Assembly (NCBI GenBank): GCA_963805625.1
Contig: CAWDVE010000011.1
Span: 32,001 to 96,000, forward strand
Source: an uncultured Candidatus Rokubacteria bacterium
Lineage (GTDB): Bacteria > Methylomirabilota > Methylomirabilia > Rokubacteriales > DASRDR01
Length of the DNA stretch: 64,000 nucleotides
Direction of reading: 5' to 3'
In this document: one piece after another, positions 3,748 to 21,156 of the stretch
Numbering within the stretch: the stretch's first letter is position 1
Layout: every line of letters begins with the position of its first letter
Made by a program: the position numbers and the translations under genes
Notes under the pieces: generated by a model
Told to the model about the DNA's origin: nothing
The model's input: only the letters and a program-made list of their open reading frames with translations
Database searches by the model: none

Positions 3748-7913
<4,166 letters not shown>

Positions 7914-8269
7914 CGCGCGATGGTCGGCGCCAGGCTACGCCAAGGCGTTAGTGGGGGCAAGTACGAGTGGCCGTGCTAGAGGAGCACGTCTGGGCTGGAC
8001 TGGGCATCGGTCCCAAGGAGACCCATTGGGGCGCCAAGGCGTCGCCGCCTTCACACTGCGCGTCCTTCCTGATCTCGTTTCGCCTGCGGCGCGGGAAACC
8101 CTGGGCCTCCAGTGCGATGCTTCCCCACCCTGCGAACTCCCGCGGGTGTCGTCCTATCCACCTACCGCGGAGGCGGCCACCGTGAAGTCCGCTTCAATAG
8201 GCGCTGGTCACTCAAGCCTGCCTCGCGCCACTCGTGTATGTATCGACACTGAACCACTCGCAGCTCCGG

Positions 8270-8713
8270 TCATTGAGCCGGGGAGTGGCGCTTCCAGTGC
8301 GCAACTAAGGCACGCATCTGGTCCCGCATCTCCTCCACTGGCCAACTGCGCGATGTCGTGTACCGTAGCTGGGTCGGATGTGCGAGAAACTTGTTCAGCT
8401 TTCGTCCCCACTTCGCTTCGAGGGTTGCCGCAAGCTTCTCGACCGATTGCAGCGTCTCGCCCGCGGGCGAGATCTCACATGTCAACGGAAGCTGAAAATA
8501 CACGTTGTCCTTGTATCGCTCGTTCGGCTTTCCGAAGAACTCGAGCAAAATCCGAAAGTGCAATAGGAACGCCTCCAAGAACGCGAATTGATCATGGTTA
8601 CCGGCGTCCTGCCCGCCAGCCAAAACACGCGTGGCGCAGTGCTCCATCATGTCAATCTCGTAGTCGACTACATCCTTCGCACTGCCCTTGGGCGGGCGCT
8701 CATAGTGCCGCAT
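8270..8713 (-). CDS. Hypothetical helical protein, possible divergent HEPN-like domain
   Basis: ORF with GAGGTG RBS before ATG 8713; LEAFLLHFRILLEFF and RKLNKFLAHPT motifs. Confidence 0.6.
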   Translation of the reverse strand: MRHYERPPKGSAKDVVDYEIDMMEHCATRVLAGGQDAGNHDQFAFLEAFLLHFRILLEFFGKPNERYKDNVYFQLPLTCEISPAGETLQSVEKLAATLEAKWGRKLNKFLAHPTQLRYTTSRSWPVEEMRDQMRALVAHWKRHSPAQ

Positions 8714-8750
8714 CAGCACCTCATGCACCACATTGGGCCGTGCTCACTGA

Positions 8751-8777
8751 GTTCCTGGATCGGTCTGATCCAGGGAA
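8751..8777. repeat. 27-bp palindromic inter-gene site, copy 1
   Basis: GTTCCTGGATC-GGTCT-GATCCAGGGAA. Confidence 0.9.
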
Positions 8778-8778
8778 G

Positions 8779-8807
8779 GCTCGGGTCTCGGACACCGAGA
8801 CCCGAGC
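8779..8807 (-). terminator. Hairpin downstream of the GYD gene
   Basis: GCTCGGGTCTCG ... CGAGACCCGAGC 12-bp perfect stem. Confidence 0.65.
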
Positions 8808-8828
8808 ACAGGCCCGACGAGACGTCCT

Positions 8829-9161
8829 CTACCGAGCGGGACGGTACTGGGCGCTAACCGCAGGAGCCTTCTTGAGCGCCGCCACCCACTGAGAGCCGTT
8901 CAGCAGCGGGGTGGTCTTCGCGGCTTTGACGGCACCGCCGGCCGCGATAGCTAGCGCCACCGCCGCCATCGTGACGTCGTCCGGAGCTTCGACGATAACC
9001 GAGACGTCATACTCGCCATAGGAAAAGCCGCCAGCGAGAATCTTCGCGCCGACAGTGTCGGTCAACTGCTTCCCGACGATCTGAAGCCGATCCTGGGGGT
9101 TTTTGATCTGGGCGGCAAGAGATTCCGGTGTGTAGGCGACCTGATACAAGTACTGCGGCAT
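8829..9161 (-). CDS. GYD domain protein
   Basis: MPQYLYQVAYTPES...SYGEYDVSVIVEAPD; RBS GGAGA. Confidence 0.88.
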   Translation of the reverse strand: MPQYLYQVAYTPESLAAQIKNPQDRLQIVGKQLTDTVGAKILAGGFSYGEYDVSVIVEAPDDVTMAAVALAIAAGGAVKAAKTTPLLNGSQWVAALKKAPAVSAQYRPAR

Positions 9162-9253
9162 CTAGTTCTCCTTTGCGCATCTGCGGTGCGTGCTACGACC
9201 AGAAGTCAGGGCCTCTAGCAATATGCTAGGTCCGGAACGCTGCCTCCTTTTCC

Positions 9254-9280
9254 GTTCCTGGATCGCTCTCATCCAGGGCC
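9254..9280. repeat. 27-bp palindromic inter-gene site, copy 2
   Basis: GTTCCTGGATC-GCTCT-CATCCAGGGCC. Confidence 0.9.
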
Positions 9281-9338
9281 TCAAGCCGATCATACCCACT
9301 GCACTGGAAAGCTCACCGCTGTCGGAGAGAACGCTCGG

Positions 9339-10028
9339 CTAATGCGCCTGGAAGGAGCCTTCGGTGATGGTCTGGTTTCCGCTAATGTCTATCGCCAGCA
9401 CTTCGAAGGCCTGCTTCCCGCCCCCGAGGGACCGTACGAACTCGGGCGGAAGCGTCACTGCCGTGCTCGATGCCGGGAGAGTGACCTGAAACGCGCCGAC
9501 GATGACCTGATAGCCGACGATGGTGACGCTCTTGTCCGGAAGGATGTCCGCCGGACCAGTGACGGGCTCCCAGCGGATGACGACGGTGTCGCCATTGACC
9601 TCTGCGGACACGGCGGGTCCGGCCGGAACGGCATGCGAGAGCGTCGGCTTGCTCATTAGCTGGGTTCCCCCCACCGTAACGCCGATGAACGTGTACTTCC
9701 CCTCCGGGAAGCGGGCCAGGAGCTGGCTGAGCAGGAACTCGTCGAGCGATGGCTCCGCGCCCTCGAAGAACAATTCGGTCAGGCCGAGACCCACGTAGCC
9801 CCCCTTGCCCTCGACGAAGAAGATCTCGGTCCCGGCTGGGTCGAGGATGCGGAGCGTCTCCCAGTCTTCGGCATCGAGGGAGACATGAAAGCCAAGGTCG
9901 TTCGCCGAGGAGTTGTACTCGATGTAGATCCGCGCTTCTTTGAACGGCGCGGCCCATGCAGGAGCCACCAGGCCGAGAGCGATCGCTCCTAGCAGAAAGC
10001 CGGGCAACAGACGCGTATGTCGTCTCAT
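9339..10028 (-). CDS. Secreted protein with C-terminal fibronectin type III-like segment
   Basis: Signal peptide ending APAWA; VVIRWEPV...IVGYQVIV...FEVLAID; RBS GAGGAGG. Confidence 0.75.
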   Translation of the reverse strand: MRRHTRLLPGFLLGAIALGLVAPAWAAPFKEARIYIEYNSSANDLGFHVSLDAEDWETLRILDPAGTEIFFVEGKGGYVGLGLTELFFEGAEPSLDEFLLSQLLARFPEGKYTFIGVTVGGTQLMSKPTLSHAVPAGPAVSAEVNGDTVVIRWEPVTGPADILPDKSVTIVGYQVIVGAFQVTLPASSTAVTLPPEFVRSLGGGKQAFEVLAIDISGNQTITEGSFQAH

Positions 10029-10258
10029 TTCTCATTCCTCCTCTTGCTCGCTGATCAGTCCTTGGGGGGCGCCGAGTTCTCTCCGAGCCACGGTGTGAAC
10101 TCTGACGCCTCGCTTGGCCAGACTTCCCGCAGATCCACCCACTTCAGCACACCGAACTCCGGCATCGTCTGTCCCCCTGAGAGTCCGCCGCTCGCCCCGC
10201 CCAGCGCTGCCCTCCGGCCTCCCTCCGTCACGGGCCAAGAAATATCGAATCAGCCACA

Positions 10259-10285
10259 GTTCCTGGATCGCCCGCTTCTAGGAAC
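10259..10285. repeat. 27-bp palindromic inter-gene site, copy 3 (contains stop codon of the upstream methyltransferase)
   Basis: GTTCCTGGATC-GCCCG-CTTCTAGGAAC. Confidence 0.9.
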
Positions 10286-11153
10286 TCCTTCTCGAACCCG
10301 CAACGTGGGCAGGTCGGCTGGTCACGACATTCAGGCACACTCCAGGGATGGCATAGCCGCCGTTCCTACGGAACGAGCCCAAGCGATCCTGTAGCGTCTG
10401 CCGCATGGAATCCTGGCGATCCTCGGATAGCCCGGTGATCACCGCCGCCAACGCGCCTGCAACCTCTCGTAGAAGCGACCAGTACTGATCGGCGCTCTCA
10501 AAGCTCCAGACGATGGGAACCTCTTCAATCCGGGGAAGCCCGAACCCGGCATCCGAAAGGAGTCGCTTGATCCGGTCCGGGTTCGCGAGTGCGAGGATTC
10601 CCGGCGCCTCCGGGGCGGGGGGCGCCATGTGGCCTCCCTCGATCAGGACCCGGGCAGGTATCGCGGCCCACGGGTTGCGCTCCGCGCTCGCAAAGACTGA
10701 AAAGCAGAGATGGCCGTCTGGGCGGAGAACTCGTCGAGTCTCTCGAAGCGCCACCGCCGGGTCTGCCATGAGCATGTAGCCCCAGCGGCAGACCACCCCA
10801 TCCACGGTGCCATCGGGGAGGTCAAGTCGCTCCGCGTCCATCACCCGATACTCCACGTTGGTGAGCCCCAGTTCGGCCCCACGACGTCGAGCCGCCTCCA
10901 CCATTCTCGGCGCGAAATCGGTCAGGATCAGTCGTCCAGTAGAGCCAAGGAGTGGCGCGGCGGCGAAGCCCGTGTCCCCAGGGCCACACGCAAGCTCGAG
11001 GACCGTCTGTCCCGGCCGCACGTCCAGGTTCGCGATGAGCCACTCGCTGATGTGCCTCGACACACCCCAGAGGTAGGCACGTTTCGTCTCCCAACCGGCA
11101 GCCATCGCGTCCCAGACGGCTTTGCTCCTCTGGCGGAAGTCATCAGGGTTCAT
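10278..11153 (-). CDS. Class I SAM-dependent methyltransferase
   Basis: VLELACGPGDTG motif I, LTDFAPRM, MDAERL. Confidence 0.9.
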   Translation of the reverse strand: MNPDDFRQRSKAVWDAMAAGWETKRAYLWGVSRHISEWLIANLDVRPGQTVLELACGPGDTGFAAAPLLGSTGRLILTDFAPRMVEAARRRGAELGLTNVEYRVMDAERLDLPDGTVDGVVCRWGYMLMADPAVALRETRRVLRPDGHLCFSVFASAERNPWAAIPARVLIEGGHMAPPAPEAPGILALANPDRIKRLLSDAGFGLPRIEEVPIVWSFESADQYWSLLREVAGALAAVITGLSEDRQDSMRQTLQDRLGSFRRNGGYAIPGVCLNVVTSRPAHVAGSRRSS

Positions 11154-11178
11154 GCCATTCCCCCGTGACGAGCTTGGA

Positions 11179-11343
11179 TCAGCTCTTCTTCGACGTCTGC
11201 GTTGTAAAGCTTCCAAGCTGCGCGACGACCCTCGTGCTCTTACACGTCGGGCACCGCACCTTCTCCTTCTCGTGCTCCGAGATGGTCATGGTGAGTTCGA
11301 ACGACTTCTGGCACTTCTCGCAGAGGTACTCGTAGCGCGGCAT
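11179..11343 (-). CDS. FmdB-family zinc ribbon protein (54 aa, not in ORF track)
   Basis: MPRYEYLCEKCQKSFE...CPTCKSTRV; RBS AGGAGG. Confidence 0.88.
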   Translation of the reverse strand: MPRYEYLCEKCQKSFELTMTISEHEKEKVRCPTCKSTRVVAQLGSFTTQTSKKS

Positions 11344-11444
11344 CGATCTCCTCCTTGAAGACGGAGGTGATCCGAAAATGTAGGGCGACGAAGGGCCTCC
11401 GTCAACCCGACGTATCGGTAGGGATACGCTTAGAGGTGGGCACC

Positions 11445-11600
11445 TTACTTTCCTTCCGCCTTGCTCCGGCGTTTGATATCTTGCCCGTGCGCCCGCTTGT
11501 AGGTCTGAATGTCCTTGAATTGGCCTTTCGCGTCACGCTTGGCGTAGAGCTTCGTCCCGGAGACGCTCTTATGCGTTGTGCGCTGTCCCTTCTGGGCCAT
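11445..11600 (-). CDS. Small basic hypothetical protein (51 aa)
   Basis: MAQKGQRTTHKSVSGTKLYAKRDAKGQFKDIQTYKRAHGQDIKRRSKAEGK; RBS GAGAGGG. Confidence 0.7.
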   Translation of the reverse strand: MAQKGQRTTHKSVSGTKLYAKRDAKGQFKDIQTYKRAHGQDIKRRSKAEGK

Positions 11601-11692
11601 TAGCCCGCCCTCTCGCCTAAGAGGTCGCCTTCGGCCGCCCGCAGCGTTTCGGAGTCGTGGTGCCCTACCATCCGGGTCGTCTCGGGTGTGGC

Positions 11693-11971
11693 TCACACCG
11701 CCTTCGCGAACCGGTTGTAGAGCCACGCCCACGCGTACCCGAGGACCCACGCCATGCCGATCATGAGTACCAGCGTGACGAGCGATGCGGCGGACGGTTG
11801 AATCTTCGGGAACAACGAGGCGACATTCGCCCCGAAGAACTGGGCATCGAACAGAATCCCGAACGCCCGCGTCGACACGAGAGCGATGATGGCAAACAGA
11901 ACGTAGAGCGCCGCCGTCAGAACGGCCAGCGAATTCGCGAAGGCCAGCTTGTTCAGCATTACCCACTCCAC
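11693..11971 (-). CDS. Small two-TM membrane protein (DUF5676-like)
   Basis: Two hydrophobic helices, ends AWLYNRF. Confidence 0.7.
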   Translation of the reverse strand: MEWVMLNKLAFANSLAVLTAALYVLFAIIALVSTRAFGILFDAQFFGANVASLFPKIQPSAASLVTLVLMIGMAWVLGYAWAWLYNRFAKAV

Positions 11972-11992
11972 CGATTATTTGGTTTTAGAGAT
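11966..11992. repeat. Possible degenerate copy of the 27-bp site
   Basis: CTCCACCGATT-ATTTG-GTTTTAGAGAT, 16/27 to copy 4, lies at a gene boundary. Confidence 0.35.
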
Positions 11993-12041
11993 TCCCACAG
12001 GCATTGGACGAATAGATTCAAGGCTCTCGCACGAAACTCTC

Positions 12042-12851
12042 TCAGGCGCGCGCGGTCAGGAGATTGTTGCCCATCGGGAATTTGATTCCGCCATCCGCCT
12101 GGCGAAACGGTCGAACCTCTGCCTCAACTTCGGCCGTGATTTCCGCGAGCACTGCGTCACCTTGCTCTGCGAGGGAGCCTAGCATAGTCGGCGCAGAAAC
12201 CGCGGTCGCTCGAACGAACAAGTTCGTTGATGGCCACTCGACCATTTTCGTCTTGCTCTCAACTTCGACCTGTCGAAAGCCTGCTCCCTCGATGAGTGTC
12301 CGCAACTGCCCCGCGTCGCTCAGCGAGAACGGCGGCAGCTTGCCTCGCTCAGATCCGAGACGACGCGCAAGCGCATGCTCGATGGCCGCGTAGGCCGGAC
12401 TCTCGGCAGAGGTGCGCCAGCAAGATACGCCAAGCCGCCCGCCTGGAACCAGCACCCGTCGCATCTGTCGAAGGGCCAATGGTTGATCGGGAAAGAACTG
12501 TAGACCCTGCTGACAGATTACAAGGTCGAATGACCGATCGCCAAATGGGAGCTCGAGGACGCTCGCCTCTCGCCATTGAATGTTCGGCGCAGAGACCAGC
12601 GATCGAGCGACTGCGAGCATGCCGGCATTGACGTCGAGGCCAACAACCCTGCCTTCCGGCGCGACTCGCTCTGCAACCAAGCGTGTCACGGCGCCCGTGC
12701 CGCAGGCGACATCCAATGCACGCTCGCCGGGTTTCGGAGCAACGAGGTCAACGAGATCACGTGCCCACGGCAGGAAAAATCGTGGGACAAGGTGCCGTTC
12801 ATAGATCTCAGCCGGTGCGCCAGTAAGGTCGAGCCTCTCGGTGTCTTCCAT
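12042..12851 (-). CDS. Class I SAM-dependent methyltransferase
   Basis: ALDVACGTG, GLDVNAGML, FDLVICQQGLQFFPD. Confidence 0.92.
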   Translation of the reverse strand: MEDTERLDLTGAPAEIYERHLVPRFFLPWARDLVDLVAPKPGERALDVACGTGAVTRLVAERVAPEGRVVGLDVNAGMLAVARSLVSAPNIQWREASVLELPFGDRSFDLVICQQGLQFFPDQPLALRQMRRVLVPGGRLGVSCWRTSAESPAYAAIEHALARRLGSERGKLPPFSLSDAGQLRTLIEGAGFRQVEVESKTKMVEWPSTNLFVRATAVSAPTMLGSLAEQGDAVLAEITAEVEAEVRPFRQADGGIKFPMGNNLLTARA

Positions 12852-12895
12852 GCCCGTTCTCCCCAGCTACCGCCACCCCGTCGGCGATTACTTAC

Positions 12896-12922
12896 GTTCC
12901 TGGATCACTTGGTTCTAGGAAC
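12896..12922. repeat. 27-bp palindromic inter-gene site, copy 4
   Basis: GTTCCTGGATC-ACTTG-GTTCTAGGAAC. Confidence 0.92.
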
Positions 12923-12982
12923 CGTCGGCACACCTTCCTTGCCACGCGCAGGAGTGGTGCGCCACGCCCCAGTGAAGGATGC

Positions 12983-13615
12983 TCATGGAGCGACCCATGC
13001 AGCGGAGAGGCCGGACTCGGTCCAACGGATGAAGGCGCGACGCATATCGCCCGGACCGAGCCAGAACCAGTCCAACGCAGTCGCGTGGACACGCACGACC
13101 GCGAAATGGCTCAGGGCGACCTCGTCGTCAGTCGTGGTAGGAAGCGCATCGAAGCGCGACGGCGCAGAGAGCACGGCGCCAGGCGCGTATTCGATCTCGC
13201 TGGCCATGCGACGAAGCGGCGAAACCTGTTGCCATGCCTCGCGTGCGACCTGGTCTCGACAATGCACGCTCGCCGTTCCGGTAAAGCGCGCCTCTATCGC
13301 ATCTCCGGGATCCCAGAAGACCACCGACACGCGACCATCCGCTCTCAGCTCTCGCACCTTATCCGAGCGGACGTCGGTGTGGAACACGAACAGTCGTTCG
13401 CCGGGCTCGACGCTGCGCAACGCGAGGACCCGGGCCCGCGGCCCGTGCGGCGACAGCGTGGCGAGCATCGGTAGCGCCCAGGCTGGCCAGCGACCGTTCA
13501 GACCTCCAGAGATGCGCCTCCACACATCGTCGAGCAAAGCCGGAAGCGTCTGAGGCAGTGACTCGACCGGCGCAGCAATGGGTGCAGTGAAAGAGCGGGA
13601 GGAGCCAGTGCTCAT
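12983..13615 (-). CDS. Pyridoxamine 5'-phosphate oxidase-like FMN-binding protein
   Basis: LATLSPHGPRARVLALR, FHTDVRSDKVREL. Confidence 0.85.
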   Translation of the reverse strand: MSTGSSRSFTAPIAAPVESLPQTLPALLDDVWRRISGGLNGRWPAWALPMLATLSPHGPRARVLALRSVEPGERLFVFHTDVRSDKVRELRADGRVSVVFWDPGDAIEARFTGTASVHCRDQVAREAWQQVSPLRRMASEIEYAPGAVLSAPSRFDALPTTTDDEVALSHFAVVRVHATALDWFWLGPGDMRRAFIRWTESGLSAAWVAP

Positions 13616-13647
13616 CGGATCAGCCCCCGTATTTCAGCTTCATTTGT

Positions 13648-13674
13648 ATACCTAGATCACTTAGTTCTCCGACC
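13648..13674. repeat. 27-bp inter-gene site, copy 5 (degenerate; upstream gene's stop codon lies in the spacer)
   Basis: ATACCTAGATC-ACTTA-GTTCTCCGACC, 20/27 to copy 4. Confidence 0.75.
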
Positions 13675-14323
13675 TTTCCGTGATGACAATCTCCTTGAAC
13701 ATGTCCCTCTCGTCGGGTCTCCATGTTCCAGACCAATCTATTCTGAACCGTCGTCTCACGTGGCCACAGTTCTCTCCATACAGAACAACCACGATCTCAT
13801 ATGATCCGGGGCCGACATAGCTCCGCTGCACAAATGGAAGTACCTCTTGGCCAAAAAAGAAACTGGGTACGTTTCGATCACCAGGCTGGAACTCGGGCCG
13901 TCCCTGCTGGAAGTACACAGCTTGCTTGGCCGGCTCTGGGATAAAGCCGATATCGCAGTAGATCCTACGCTCGGGATTCAGATCAATGAATTGACCACCG
14001 ACAACACTCCACACGAGGTACACCCCAAAGAAGTTTGCCTCTCGAATGTACCGTCCAGCACTATCGCGTACCCACAACTCCTCGAGTATCATCTCGCAAC
14101 GTCGCGCTTGAGTACCTCCTCTGTTCTGGACCGAGAGCCGAAAGTAGTATACAGGCCACCCACCTCCCGTCCCGGTCCGGTGACTCCATGGTGGCTCGAG
14201 ACGAAATTCGATTCGCAAATCCGGCCCGAACCATCTTCGCTTAATCCATTCGGCCCCAGCCGGTCCAAGAAGCGCACCGACGAGGCCCGAAAGTAAGGCA
14301 ATCACAACATTCGTAATGATCAT
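13661..14323 (-). CDS. Hypothetical protein with N-terminal TM helix; lower GC than its neighbours
   Basis: MIITNVVIALLSGLVGALLG; RBS GGAGGGGG before ATG 14323. Confidence 0.75.
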   Translation of the reverse strand: MIITNVVIALLSGLVGALLGPAGAEWIKRRWFGPDLRIEFRLEPPWSHRTGTGGGWPVYYFRLSVQNRGGTQARRCEMILEELWVRDSAGRYIREANFFGVYLVWSVVGGQFIDLNPERRIYCDIGFIPEPAKQAVYFQQGRPEFQPGDRNVPSFFFGQEVLPFVQRSYVGPGSYEIVVVLYGENCGHVRRRFRIDWSGTWRPDERDMFKEIVITERSEN

Positions 14324-14352
14324 CCCCCCTCCCGCTATCACCCGCTCGAGCA

Positions 14353-14379
14353 AGCCTTAGATCACCGTGATCTAGGGTC
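14353..14379. repeat. 27-bp palindromic inter-gene site, copy 6
   Basis: AGCCTTAGATC-ACCGT-GATCTAGGGTC. Confidence 0.78.
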
Positions 14380-14479
14380 ATATCTTCTGAGGAGCGGAAT
14401 CAGCCACTGGGGCAACCTCGTCATGCTCGAAGCACCGTACCATCACGCTTCCGCCGCAGCTCGACGCGAGTTCACGTCG

Positions 14480-14720
14480 TCTGGCCTGCGCCTGGGCGGC
14501 GAGCGGCGCGGCGAGGAGGCCGCCTGCCATGCCCGTGATGAAGGCCCGCCGGTCCACTATTGAATCACCTCATCCGCCCGCGCGAGCACCGCCGGGGGAA
14601 TCGTGAGGCCGAGGGCCTTGGCCGTCTTGAGGTTGATGACCAGCTGGGGCTTTCTGGGCTGCTCCACGGGGAGATCGGCCGGCTTCGCGCCCTTGAGGAT
14701 CTTGTCCACGAAACCGCTGC
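14480..14720 (-). pseudogene. Two ABC substrate-binding protein relics: C-terminus of one (14557-14720) fused to the N-terminus of the next (14480-14557)
   Basis: [19 protein letters not shown]...[28 protein letters not shown] overlapping VDRRAFITGMAGGLLAAPLAAQAQ. Confidence 0.85.
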
Positions 14721-14901
14721 ATGCCAGTAGTTGGCAACGGTGCTCCAAGCACTTCCTAGGTTCCAGAGGACCGGCCCGTCCACTGGTAGCTGTTACGGCT
14801 CTTACTTCTATCACACCATCCCGACGCCCGAGCCCTGGCGGCAGCGCTAGGCAACCGGCGCGCACGCCTGCTGCCCAGGCCCTGGCACAACGGCTCTATT
14901 C

Positions 14902-15684
14902 CTACGGGGTGGTGCCGCTCAAGGAGAAACTGCCGTTAAACCTCGGGCCCGACGCTGGGGTGGGGCCGACGATATCGCCGCCAACCCGCAGCCAGTCCGG
15001 ATCCAGGTCCGCGTTGCGGATCCACATCTGCAGGTCGCCGGTAAACAACGGCGGGACAGGTCCAGGTGCGGACAGCCACAGGAAGTTGCCAGCCCGACCT
15101 TGCAACTGCACCTGGGGCACGAAGAAGTAGTGATCGGCGGGCAGGTTCAGGGGCGGCTCGAATACCACATCGAAGAGAACCTCCTGCCCCGCCACCGGCC
15201 CTTCGCCCCCCGTAGTTTGATCCGGAGATGGATGGATGCCATCGATCACCGAGTTGGCGGCCTCGAAATGGGGATTGATGACCGTGGCCGTGAACCGCAG
15301 GGTTCCAGCCGCGCTGCGGCGGTCGGCAAACGCATCATCCGAAGGCGAGTTCGTCCGGGTGGGTACCTGCCCCGACGGTGGATCGGTCGAGTCGTTCGGG
15401 AACACGCGGTAGATCTCCACGACCACGTCGCGTATCTCCCCGTGCCCACCATGGGACAGGAGCCCGGTAAAGGTGGCTCCACTGATGGTCGTGGGCGACG
15501 TGAGGATAAAGTCATCGGCGGCCTCAATCTCAATCTTGTGGCGGCTTTCGGGGCGGGAGGCAGCGGCCATTCGGCCATCCGGGTCGCCCGTGGTGAAGAA
15601 GAAATCGGCTGCGGAGGCCGTGGCGCCCAGCATCAGCACCAGTGCCAAGGTCGTCAAGAAGCAAGGCATCCGTCGCATCGTCAT
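14902..15684 (-). CDS. Secreted hypothetical protein (resembles N-terminal domains of PEP-CTERM proteins)
   Basis: RBS GGAGA, signal peptide ending ASA-ADFFFTTG; long ORF with biased codons. Confidence 0.7.
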   Translation of the reverse strand: MTMRRMPCFLTTLALVLMLGATASAADFFFTTGDPDGRMAAASRPESRHKIEIEAADDFILTSPTTISGATFTGLLSHGGHGEIRDVVVEIYRVFPNDSTDPPSGQVPTRTNSPSDDAFADRRSAAGTLRFTATVINPHFEAANSVIDGIHPSPDQTTGGEGPVAGQEVLFDVVFEPPLNLPADHYFFVPQVQLQGRAGNFLWLSAPGPVPPLFTGDLQMWIRNADLDPDWLRVGGDIVGPTPASGPRFNGSFSLSGTTP

Positions 15685-16712
15685 TCTCCTCTTGGAGGAT
15701 TGGGAATTACTGTCTGTCTGCCGGTACACACCGGCAGGCTGCTGGACTGTTCGAACAATACTGTATTGCTGCGGGCTGGGCGGTGTCCCGATCGATGTGG
15801 GAATTGACAGGCGCTCTTCCGCCCTGATGCCGTGACGATCGCATCGGGTGGTTCATCACGGGGCCTCCGGTGCGCCAAGGCTAGCATGGCGAAAGGGCGT
15901 CAAGCACTGCGCCTCCTTCTGCTCGGCCGGCTGGTGCCGGCGCGACGATCGTGGTGACGGCCGACACTCCTGCTGGCTCGAGGTGTGGCGCCGCACAACC
16001 GGGCCGGCCTGGAGGATCATTGTCGACGATCTGCGAGCAAGTCAACGAGGTCCGCTTCGTCCACTACTCCGAGAGGTACACCCCAACCTAACTTAGACCA
16101 GGACGAAGCAGAGCGGCTGCTTAACTCGAACGAACTTGTGTTCAAGGACAACCTATCTGCATGCCGCGGGGATCTCTTGCCGGCAGCTGCCCGCCACTTC
16201 TAACTGACAATCTGTTGCCTAGCTCCGCACATTTGGGCGGCGGGACGCCGACATGAGCCGCTCGCTAGCCGCGCGGGTGCTTTCTTTCCCCGATTCCAGA
16301 ATTGCGAGGCGTCCGGCAGCACGTGGCGCCAGACGCGGAAATGCGCCCGGGATTTTCAGTCGTGCGGACAATGGTTCGCGAATGGAACGAGATCGGACGG
16401 AATCGTTGTGCATTGCAGTACTCGCCGTGTCGGGCGCTGGGTTGTGTTCACCGATCGTATGTGATCCCGCCCGATGATTCGGTCAAAGCTGGGTCAAAGC
16501 AACCGCAGCGCCCCCCCCCCGGCACCGCCGCCGCCGCAGTCCCAGTCTACCCGCCGACCCGCGGAGGCCTGTCCACACCCACGTCTCCCCGAGTCCACCC
16601 CGGCGCGCTCTGGCCCTTGCCGGGCCGGCCTGCCGCGCGCGAGAGTCCGGTCACCGGTCACCCTGGGAATGCGCCCGCTGGGCTGACGGCGGGATCGCGG
16701 CGCGGGCGGGAA

Positions 16713-16958
16713 TCAGGCTTTGCACCGCCTACGATCTGGGAGCGACAAGCGAGCTCCGAACAGCATTCGGCTGAAGGTGTCGCGCCCGAGCCGGTCAGTA
16801 CCCATCAGATGCGCCCATGTCGGTGGAGAGAGCGGTGACGCCGTGCCCGTGATGTAGGGGTCATAGGGTGCGAGGCGATCGGCGACGAGGGCCGAGACCG
16901 TCACGAGCACAAAAAAGATGGCCGACGCCAGGGCCGCCGGACTCCATACGAGTCGCAA
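16713..16958 (-). pseudogene. DppC/OppC ABC permease N-terminal fragment
   Basis: LAPYDP...LSPPTWAHLMGTDRLGRDTFSRMLFGARLSL, then truncated. Confidence 0.8.
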
Positions 16959-17244
16959 GAAGCCGCGCGCAAATCCCCGCGCCCATTGGCTCAGCCTTGA
17001 CTCAGGCCCAGTCCAGAATCCCGCGCTTTTGCATGTTCGTGCAACACCCCATCGCTTCCTCGGCGACTGACCTTCCTCCCCTGCTTCCTCCTTGTCTGCT
17101 GTCGGGTCACGTCATCGTTGACAGTGCCCGTGCCGCTGAGTATGATCGCCTGCAGGTCAGGCGGGCGGGCTTTTCTGTCTCGACCAGCAGGCTTTGTCGG
17201 CCCGACGCTGGGGGTAGTACTCTAGTCTCATAAGGGAGGTACCT

Positions 17245-19768: not shown

Positions 19769-21156
19769 GCTCAAGTCCGAGCCTTGCTGGATAATCTGAC
19801 GGGGGACGCACTCACGGTCGGGCGAACCGCCGGAGTGGTGCGCTCGGCGTGAGCCCGGTCCAATTCGGCGCGAATCGCCTTGAGCTGCCGCCGCTCGAAC
19901 TCGCCGACGGTGAGACCCCGCCAGCGATCGGCCGCGCGGATCACCGCGGCGTACATGAGCTTCAACACCGGCCGTTCGCCGAAGACATGGGGGAGGACCT
20001 TGGTGCGGCGCCGTTCCTCGCCGAAGAGGCGCTCAAGAGATTCGTGGTCCGGATGACCTTGCGGTGCTGGAGCGGAAACCGCAGGTGGGCGACGCATGCG
20101 TCAAAGTCCTCGAGGAAGCAGCGGACGGCCGCGGGTAGGTCCCGCTCGTAGGTCTGCACGACATCGTCCCGGAGCACGGCGGCCAGGCGGGCGACGCGGC
20201 CTCGTAGCAAGCGCGGGCGCGGAGGCCACCTCCGGCCAGGTCGCCTCCGGCACCTTGCCACGCAGGTTCCGCATCCGATGGGCCAGGCAGCGTTCGCGCA
20301 GCGCCCGCGGGAAACACGTCTCGACCGCGCGAATCAGCCCCGGCGCGCCATCGGTCACCGTCAGCAGCGGGTCCGGCAGGCCCCGGCGCTTGAGGTCTTC
20401 GAAGAAGGCGGTACAGCTTGCGGTGTCCTCCTTCGTGCCCGATGCCAGATGTAGCAGCACCTTCCGCCTGTCCTCGGTGATCCCCCAGGCGCAGAGCACC
20501 GCCTCCCGCGGCATCCCGGCATGGAGCCGCTCGGCGACGCCATCGACGAACAGGTAGGCGACCACGAACTCGCTCAGGTCCCGGGGTGGCGAACGCTTCG
20601 TATTCCTGCCACAACCGCTCCGTCACCTGACTCACGGGCGTCCGACTGAGGAGGGGCTGCCCGGCCGGCCCCTGGAAGGCCGCCTCGATGTCCCGAGTGC
20701 TCAGACCGCGCGCGTACATCTCGACGGCCAGCCGTTCGAGCTCCGCCGTGCGCCCGGGCAGACGGGCGCGGATCCGCGAGACGAAGGGATCGGGCCGATC
20801 AGCCACCTGGGAGACTCCATACTCGATGCGGCCTTCGCCCGTCTGGAGGCGGCTCCGGCGGTACCCATTGCGGTAACCGGTCCCGGGGGCTGCGCCGTTC
20901 TCGTAGTACCCGCGGCCCAGGACCTCACTGACTTCGGCTTCCAAGGCCTCCTCCACGATCTTCCGCACCGCCAGCTTGATCAGCTCGGTCTGGTCATGCT
21001 ACGCCCTGCCCCAAGAACTCCTGCAGCCCCTGGTGCGTCTGCTCCGACGCGGGTACCCTCTGTCCCATCGGGGATGCTCCTCTCGGCGTCTCGGGTTTCG
21101 AGTTCGAAGCAAGAGTGCATCCCCCATCTGTTTTCCAGTAAGTCTAGGACTTCACC
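19769..21156 (-). mobile_element. Degenerate IS256-family element with frameshifted transposase (~19771-21068)
   Basis: GYRNGYR, EMYARGLSTRDI, AYLFVDG, TVTDGAPGL, RTTNLL; 26-bp imperfect terminal inverted repeats (20/26); 8-bp flanks AGGGGCGG / CGGTGCGG. Confidence 0.9.

Follow-up and report, generated by a model that had tools for sequence, protein, structure and literature searches.

The window analysed here is a stretch of 64,000 nucleotides from an uncultured Candidatus Rokubacteria bacterium (contig CAWDVE010000011.1), and between positions 8270 and 14379 it carries an array of short palindromic sites that separate unrelated genes. We consider that these ordered sites, each formed by two 10-bp arms around a 7-bp centre, are probably address-coded crossover points at which a dedicated tyrosine recombinase would exchange DNA between matching addresses. 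The best reading of the sequences is that cassettes would be exchanged slot by slot rather than stacked as in an integron. The feature itself is real, the address code is well supported and the assignment of an enzyme to it is likely, all three judged from sequence comparison. The genome of the window (G000) appears to be an orphan holder of arrays that lacks the enzyme. Other G numbers denote related genomes and L numbers extracted loci, while the site letters (Y, Z, A, B, C, E, F, G and H) are labels assigned in this analysis.

A sequence-only reading of this DNA had described six copies of an 11-5-11 motif, and all six were found at 8751, 9254, 10259, 12896, 13648 and 14353 with arms and spacers exactly as it gave them. 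The left arm GTTCCTGGATC is the same in four copies, and the site-to-site units measured again were 503, 1005, 2637, 752 and 705 bp, both as claimed. All the sites lie on the plus strand, namely A (centre CGGTCTG, 8751..8777), B (CGCTCTC, 9254..9280), C (CGCCCGC, 10259..10285), F (CACTTGG, 12896..12922), G (CACTTAG, 13648..13674) and H (CACCGTG, 14353..14379). The consensus pattern gave eight matches in the window (four sites, both strands) against 0.31 expected. A scan with a position weight matrix (PWM) found nothing of at least 13 bits in the window besides the known sites, so the statement that the motif occurs nowhere else is correct for the window, although beyond it the motif recurs in G000 (23 sites of at least 20 bits). 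The weak copy noted at 11966 is a real site and is weak as a result of decay. This F site (11966..11992, plus strand) has the centre TATTTGG and aligns with a CACTTGG site of G150, where the homology stops four bases beyond the centre.

The site is better described as 10-7-10 than as 11-5-11 because base 17 goes with the centre, which would then be 7 bp long. For example, base 17 was observed to be G in 37 of 38 sites after GGTCT and C in 27 of 28 after GCCCG, and it followed the third of the three commonest 5-mers in 24 of 28 sites. Base 18 is more variable (30:8, 25:2:1 and 20:7:1 for the same three 5-mers). Both arms fit one consensus. A symmetric PWM built from 24 G000 sites gave 23 hits of at least 20 bits in that genome compared with 0 and 0 in two shuffles, and the same arms set at spacings of 3, 4, 6, 7 and 8 gave 1, 2, 0, 1 and 2 such hits against 23 for N5; these G000 counts include the training sites, and the weight therefore rests on other genomes. 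Two unpublished genomes, G058 and G101, underlie none of the claims.

The exact A-site pattern was found in six stretches among 185,579 species genomes, four of them labelled Rokubacteria and two labelled uncultured bacterium, and a metagenome scan with a free 5-mer returned at least 120 loci. The sites are largely placed between genes, with 1 of 181 deep inside a called gene compared with 109 of 150 random positions. No match was found in the close relatives G065, G096 and G107, which are 97-98% complete. At two mismatches 76 of 151 genomes have a match, but many of these are single hits with random centres and the figure is not taken as prevalence. The H-site pattern gave no hits in viral contigs, and the 11 single hits of the general pattern there were set aside as chance or repeats, being in DNA of 34-45% guanine plus cytosine (GC) with centres outside the vocabulary. 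Pairs of Z-type sites 32-43 bp apart were also noticed at L026:4239/4271, L263:15309/15342 and L264:14189/14232, inverted in two cases.

The 7-bp centre is well supported by these comparisons as an address that would be drawn from a small fixed vocabulary, not a random spacer. Other arrays in G000 reuse the centres of the window in the same order: A, B, C, E-like and F on G000:C12, F, G and H on G000:C13, Z, A and C on G000:C19, and Z, A and H on G000:C10. Across arrays the order is Y, Z, A, B, C, E, F, G, H, and the centres recur in related genera and families. The order was counted over G000 and a set of extracted loci, with own-genome loci, viral loci and sites with other centres excluded; 269 sites were on or one base from the twelve main centres, of which 234 were non-redundant, in 50 arrays. 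Adjacent pairs with exact addresses ran forward in 55 cases, back in 8 and stayed at the same address in 2. Outside G000 there were 42 forward against 7 back, and each of the 7 back-steps is a return to Z or A, which arrays in tandem or in circular permutation would be expected to show. The positions of Y and of exact E were set from the arrays outside G000, which biases about three pairs, and kin arrays are not independent.

Orientation is also regular, since neighbouring sites are co-oriented in 81 pairs and inverted in 10, and 102 cargo genes are directed against the address order compared with 20 along it (own gene caller). Successive centres differ by 3, 3, 2, 2, 3, 1, 1 and 3 bases, and only 28 of 362,880 orderings are equally good. 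Before de-duplication, the counts over the metagenome loci (at least 120) and 11 viral loci were CGGTCTG 12, CGTTGAG 10, CGCCCGC 10, CAATCAG 9 and CACTTGG 5. The centre CATCAAC occurred 10 times and was rejected as repeats of unrelated DNA, being found in single sites mostly in loci of 42-44% GC. A second set of centres (CGTTGAG, CAATGAG and CAATCAG) is found on the same arms in L032, L080, L101, L241, L246 and L247, and the array in L032 adjoins a transfer RNA (tRNA)-associated integrase.

The cargo between a given pair of addresses nearly always differs from array to array. Distinct cargo was observed in 15 of 16 Z-A slots, 11 of 11 A-B, 6 of 7 B-C, 3 of 4 F-G and 5 of 5 A-H slots, and the breakpoints fall in the sites. 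This supports the view of the sequence-only reading that the copies of the motif are recombination-type sites which bound exchangeable cargo. Among 219 non-redundant sites we found 30 pairs in which homology abuts the site on one side only. The partners at these one-sided junctions have the same centre in 25 of 30 pairs, where 0.084 would be the chance value, and are within one base in 28 of 30. The arm next to the shared DNA carries 0.77 mismatches on average and the opposite arm 3.1. The shared centre together with the conserved arm on the shared side thus places the crossover in the centre.

Whole cassettes were also found in new neighbourhoods, as with a B-C cassette in L086 and L015 and an E-like-F cassette in G000:C12 and G000:C13. 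Furthermore, G138 and G212 share a block of 827 bp at 99.6% identity that runs from site F into site E between unrelated flanks, the only other match between the two loci being a paralogous gene at 69%. Contigs from public sequencing runs (8 of 21 runs, among the joints listed) leave the window sequence inside the sites at 8758 (A), 9256 (B), 10267 (C), and 12901 and 12914 (F), with the departure at 9256 seen in three contigs, all of one study. One contig joins 11959 to 12901, which is a form without methyltransferase 2.

The enzyme likely to act on the sites, judged from their linkage, is a family of XerC/D-like tyrosine recombinases that lies outside any named class. Among 43 loci with PF00589 matches listed in five array-bearing relatives one had sites, and further loci show the same family beside Z. 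Two protein searches found five copies of the family in 4 of 251 genomes of the phylum, each at a distance of 7-841 bp from a site (still 4 of 4 when the query copy is set aside). The co-occurrence of one recombinase clade with the sites, which had been put forward as a check on the earlier reading, is thus observed for all five copies. Two further fragments of the family lie 321 and 1187 bp from a site in loci that were chosen for their sites, while none of 66 other recombinase loci, XerC/D-like ones included, has a site within about 1.5 kb on each side. At four loci a Z-type site is located about 0.3 kb before the start codon of the family gene and the leader between them is conserved, but both copies in G214 are turned the other way, with the gene facing the array.

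The family has the PF00589 domain and the complete R-K-H-R-H-Y catalytic set of tyrosine recombinases. In 30 sequences R184, K208, R278, H301 and Y311 were invariant and H275 and Y310 nearly so. It scores below the cut-offs for XerC, XerD and XerA, and four proteins gave 67-76 bits with TIGR02249 (IntI) against a cut-off of 265; its closest solved structures are XerD and XerA. At E<=1e-60 it comprises 934 clusters, with one member assigned to Rokuibacteriota. In all four DNA copies that include a C4-5T4-6 run close to the 5' end, the reading frame is off by one or two bases at this point. Of the family proteins fetched, 37 of 149 start just after the C/T run, and P0130, which shares a 90% cluster with several of these, is in frame. 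The run may be a slippage switch, or alternatively the frame loss may come from decay or assembly error.

As the earlier reading had stated, the window has no such recombinase gene. A hidden Markov model of the family found no member in G000, where the best score was 126 bits for a XerC-like protein compared with 340-564 for near-complete members, and none of the 24 PF00589 matches of this genome is convincingly tied to an array. Clustering of the proteins that neighbour arrays revealed no recombinase. The integrase beside the G000:C12 array (158.4-159.5 kb) was rejected, as two tRNA genes lie between them and it abuts the 3' end of a tRNA-Arg, which suggests a tRNA-integrated element. A Xer-like family represented at G000:C10:2008646 had no site of at least 15 bits at any of 24 loci. 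This family, found in 22 of 173 genomes (L165-L188), is often beside an HU-like gene, and its G000 copy (2008646-2009464) is truncated. A stand-alone mini tyrosine recombinase of 175 aa in G045 (L233:11860-12387) has no such sites on its contig.

The need for spacer identity is established for tyrosine recombinases. In the proposed exchange, one type of protein would bind both arms and would require matching centres. An incoming array on another DNA would join at one shared address, and the cointegrate would resolve at a second shared address, with the block between them being swapped. Such a swap would keep the address order, as would deletions, and slots may be skipped. Cargo between co-oriented sites whose centres differ should not be excised, and the array should therefore be stable. 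The joined intermediate predicts direct repeats, and the layouts H-recombinase-Z-A-H (in G119) and B-recombinase-A-B (in G214) fit this prediction. Duplication of a site followed by mutation of one of the two centres would give rise to a new address, which would account for the similarity of neighbours in the order.

Several observations weigh against this mechanism. The family was found in only 4 of 251 genomes and not in G000, G138, G150 or G108, which all have arrays, and all four copies that include the C/T run are out of frame there, with others truncated. No vehicle was identified in searches of viral contigs and plasmids; the family itself was not found in the plasmids, nor in the viral contigs, where three distant hits had 28-34% identity. 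Among the joints listed for the public runs, in contigs only, no site-to-site return joint that would mark a circle was present. Ten pairs of neighbouring sites are inverted. The junction pairs are not independent, one cargo family supplying six of them, and the centres differ in 5 of 30, by two bases in 2. One cassette, 98% identical between G000 and G208, occupies the G-H slot in the former and the Z-H slot in the latter, while methyltransferase 2 lies between two F sites in the window and between F and G in G138; mismatched crossover or mutation of centres therefore does happen. In addition, homologues of several cargo genes occur without sites, and their similarity stops just beyond the arms, which is not explained by crossover in the centre. 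For instance, site-free homologues of the PNPOx gene (87-91%) are present in four genomes, and in two of them the match extends to within 3-4 bp outside F and G; methyltransferase 1 has a site-free counterpart in G150 (94% identity over 10287-11178), with the match starting 1 bp outside C. On whether homologous cargo elsewhere is ever flanked by the motif, which the earlier reading had named among its refuting conditions, the outcome is divided, because several homologues are without sites and others are bounded by them. It was also considered that arrays enter cryptic targets and are left with weak outer arms, but the scores of the outer arms (11.1 and 10.5 bits) and the inner ones (11.0 and 11.2 bits) gave this no support.

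The same exchange might be carried out by host XerC/XerD or another resident recombinase, with the site-linked family as a passenger, and this would agree with the situation in G000, where XerC- and XerD-like genes occur together with numerous arrays and the family was not found, with the failure to find a canonical dif-like site in that genome and with the often broken family copies. We regard it as unlikely, since both arms match one consensus at a spacing of N5 rather than N6, the sites are patchy in close relatives (0 in G065, G096 and G107), a conserved leader connects the site with the family gene and no other recombinase locus of the 66, XerC/D-like ones included, has a site nearby. Integron-like stacking, where single-site circles enter one insertion point beside the recombinase and the centres impose no restriction, is somewhat less probable again. 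The co-oriented cargo (102 to 20), the fixed place of Z before the recombinase like that of attI, and the few mismatched-centre junctions and X-cargo-X repeats would suit it, yet stacking would scramble an order that is conserved, and it does not account for junction partners that share their centre, for the absence of an attC pattern or for an enzyme far under the IntI cut-off.

We give still less credence to the view that all arrays go back to a single ancestral element, of which they would be old copies with an order that was merely inherited, the cargo being changed by host homologous or illegitimate recombination that uses the sites as short anchors. Many sites and recombinase copies are indeed decayed and cargo capture does end outside the arms, but the site-bounded block at 99.6% identity in two species implies recent exchange, and the arms on the unshared side differ while the centre is kept, which is the reverse of homology-driven pairing. 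Least probable of all, and largely refuted by the junction data, is that a dimeric transcription factor uses the motif as its operator. A palindrome of fixed spacing that is almost always intergenic (1 of 181 deep in a gene) would be expected of an operator, but the ordered spacer code and the DNA junctions would not. The regulon that the sequence-only reading had named as its alternative, at fixed distance upstream of related genes, is not borne out either, because the distance to the next start codon varies from 31 to 1060 bp (10th-90th percentile, n=83) and the cargo is unrelated.

In how it works, the system comes closest to dif modules and engineered cassette exchange, yet it falls outside pdif modules, integrons and the lox geometry. 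In pdif modules of Acinetobacter plasmids, short two-arm sites separate accessory genes, near-identical or identical spacers are needed, and it has been proposed that a single module is replaced when a cointegrate forms and is then resolved at another pair of sites (PMC13141974). The present sites resemble these as two-arm sites, probably of a tyrosine recombinase, between accessory genes, with crossover apparently occurring between matching spacers (25 of 30 identical here). However, pdif sites have distinct XerC/XerD arms, a 6-bp spacer, alternating orientation and host enzymes, whereas the present sites have symmetric arms and a 7-bp centre and are co-oriented (81 vs 10), their arrays are set among genes of chromosome type, and the recombinase family linked to them is a separate one. 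The order is conserved across genera here, while no fixed spacer order is described in the parts consulted of PMC13141974. The earlier statement that the sites are not dif is upheld, as they have no dif-type 6-bp spacing: distinct XerC/XerD arms with a 6-bp spacer were not found in G000, where hits of at least 20 bits numbered 23 for N5 and 0 for N6. The N6 pattern has matches in 9 of 173 genomes, once in each and none in G000, and a search of G000 for canonical dif found none convincing.

For Cre/loxP and engineered cassette exchange, spacer identity is needed and the swap takes place between two heterospecific sites (PMC10250229). A palindromic site, a directional spacer and one recombinase are common to Cre/loxP and the present system, and a site adjoins the recombinase gene here, but loxP is 13-8-13 rather than 10-7-10. 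Cassette exchange is an engineered use of two sites, whereas the present one would be natural with nine or more ordered addresses. A further difference is that the closest solved structures of the family are XerD and XerA.

The integron analogy of the sequence-only reading, which implied equivalent sites and free stacking, is not supported, since the centres form a fixed vocabulary in fixed order and neighbouring sites would therefore be mostly incompatible. Integrons and CALIN arrays consist of co-oriented units of one or a few genes, often without the enzyme (PMC4889954). The present arrays share these features and have stops in or near the sites; they differ in that the sites are 27 bp long and probably not interchangeable and the linked enzyme is not IntI. 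The absence of the attC pattern was confirmed, as no RYYYAAC...GTTRRRY pair 30-130 bp apart, the motif of attC, was found within 150 bp of the seven window sites. Rfam gave no matches in window positions 6000-17000, a search that is not equivalent to the IntegronFinder covariance model. Fragments at G000:C24:21703-21828, L101:6731-7099 and L218 have a C-terminal motif that we take to resemble that of integron integrases, and true integrons may also occur in these hosts.

The cargo genes of the window array are all on the minus strand, as had been reported. At the left end, an open reading frame (ORF) of 153 aa (8270..8731) has no Pfam match and no detectable left site in the window; its homologue in G045 sits between a Z-like site and an A site. 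The A-B cargo is a GYD-domain protein (8829..9161). A homologous GYD gene at L288 (G032:C134) has on either side a direct repeat, about 33 bp long (~1465-1500 and ~1935-1970), that is unrelated to the site, possibly another cassette-like system. The B-C cargo (9339..10028) is a 229-aa protein with a signal-peptide-like start and no Pfam match, and its former label of FN3-like is thus without Pfam support. Two stop codons were correctly placed inside sites, namely the TAG at 10278-10280 in site C, which belongs to the adjoining S-adenosylmethionine (SAM) methyltransferase 1 (10278..11216), and the TAA at 13661-13663 in site G, whose right arm and centre overlap the end of an orphan gene. Beside methyltransferase 1 lies the gene of a 54-aa Zn_ribbon_8 zinc-ribbon protein (11179..11343), a recurrent neighbour of C sites. 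A sharp homology boundary lies between these two genes at 11178/11179 with no scored site there, and in other contigs site C and the zinc-ribbon gene are joined with almost nothing between them.

Next are a basic ORF of 51 aa (11445..11600), a DUF5676-like membrane protein scoring just below the Pfam cut-off (11693..11959) and SAM methyltransferase 2 (12042..12851), whose homologue in G138 lies between F and G. The F-G cargo is a PNPOx-like protein (12983..13615), and a second site-free PNPOx copy (90%) is present on the window's own contig at G000:C11:20951-21656, 11 kb left of the window. The G-H cargo is the orphan of 220 aa with about 54% GC (13661..14323). The 105 bp after site H (14380..14484) are 93% common with the DNA after site H of the array at G000:C13:414933, where the G-H cargo is unrelated to that of the window. 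A broken substrate-binding gene of an ABC transporter (14486-14865) lies to the right of site H, and a broken Mutator-family transposase is found at 19771-20968. Elsewhere in G000, the first ~130 kb of G000:C10 have AT-rich stretches unlike the rest of this 69% GC genome, possibly foreign DNA or contamination (6.26% contamination).

The full-text literature searched, which covered few subscription papers, has no description of this site, of the role of the family or of an ordered address code. As a wider and more tentative proposal, for which we put the chances at a little under even, the sites may form an exchange platform across the whole order of Rokubacteria. One recombinase family would read nine or more 7-bp addresses in cyclic order and any block could be swapped into its slot between genomes. 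The code would grow by duplication and mutation, and the enzyme, carried on a rare circle and switched at the slippery C/T run, would act in trans on orphan arrays. Address-coded exchange at such sites would add to integrons and dif modules a third means by which bacteria arrange their accessory genes, and would be a natural counterpart of engineered multi-site cassette exchange. The family would also provide a candidate recombinase, together with spacers that already coexist in nature as a set, possibly of use as a tool. For a lineage known here from metagenome-assembled genomes alone, the arrays offer a testable route of gene flow.

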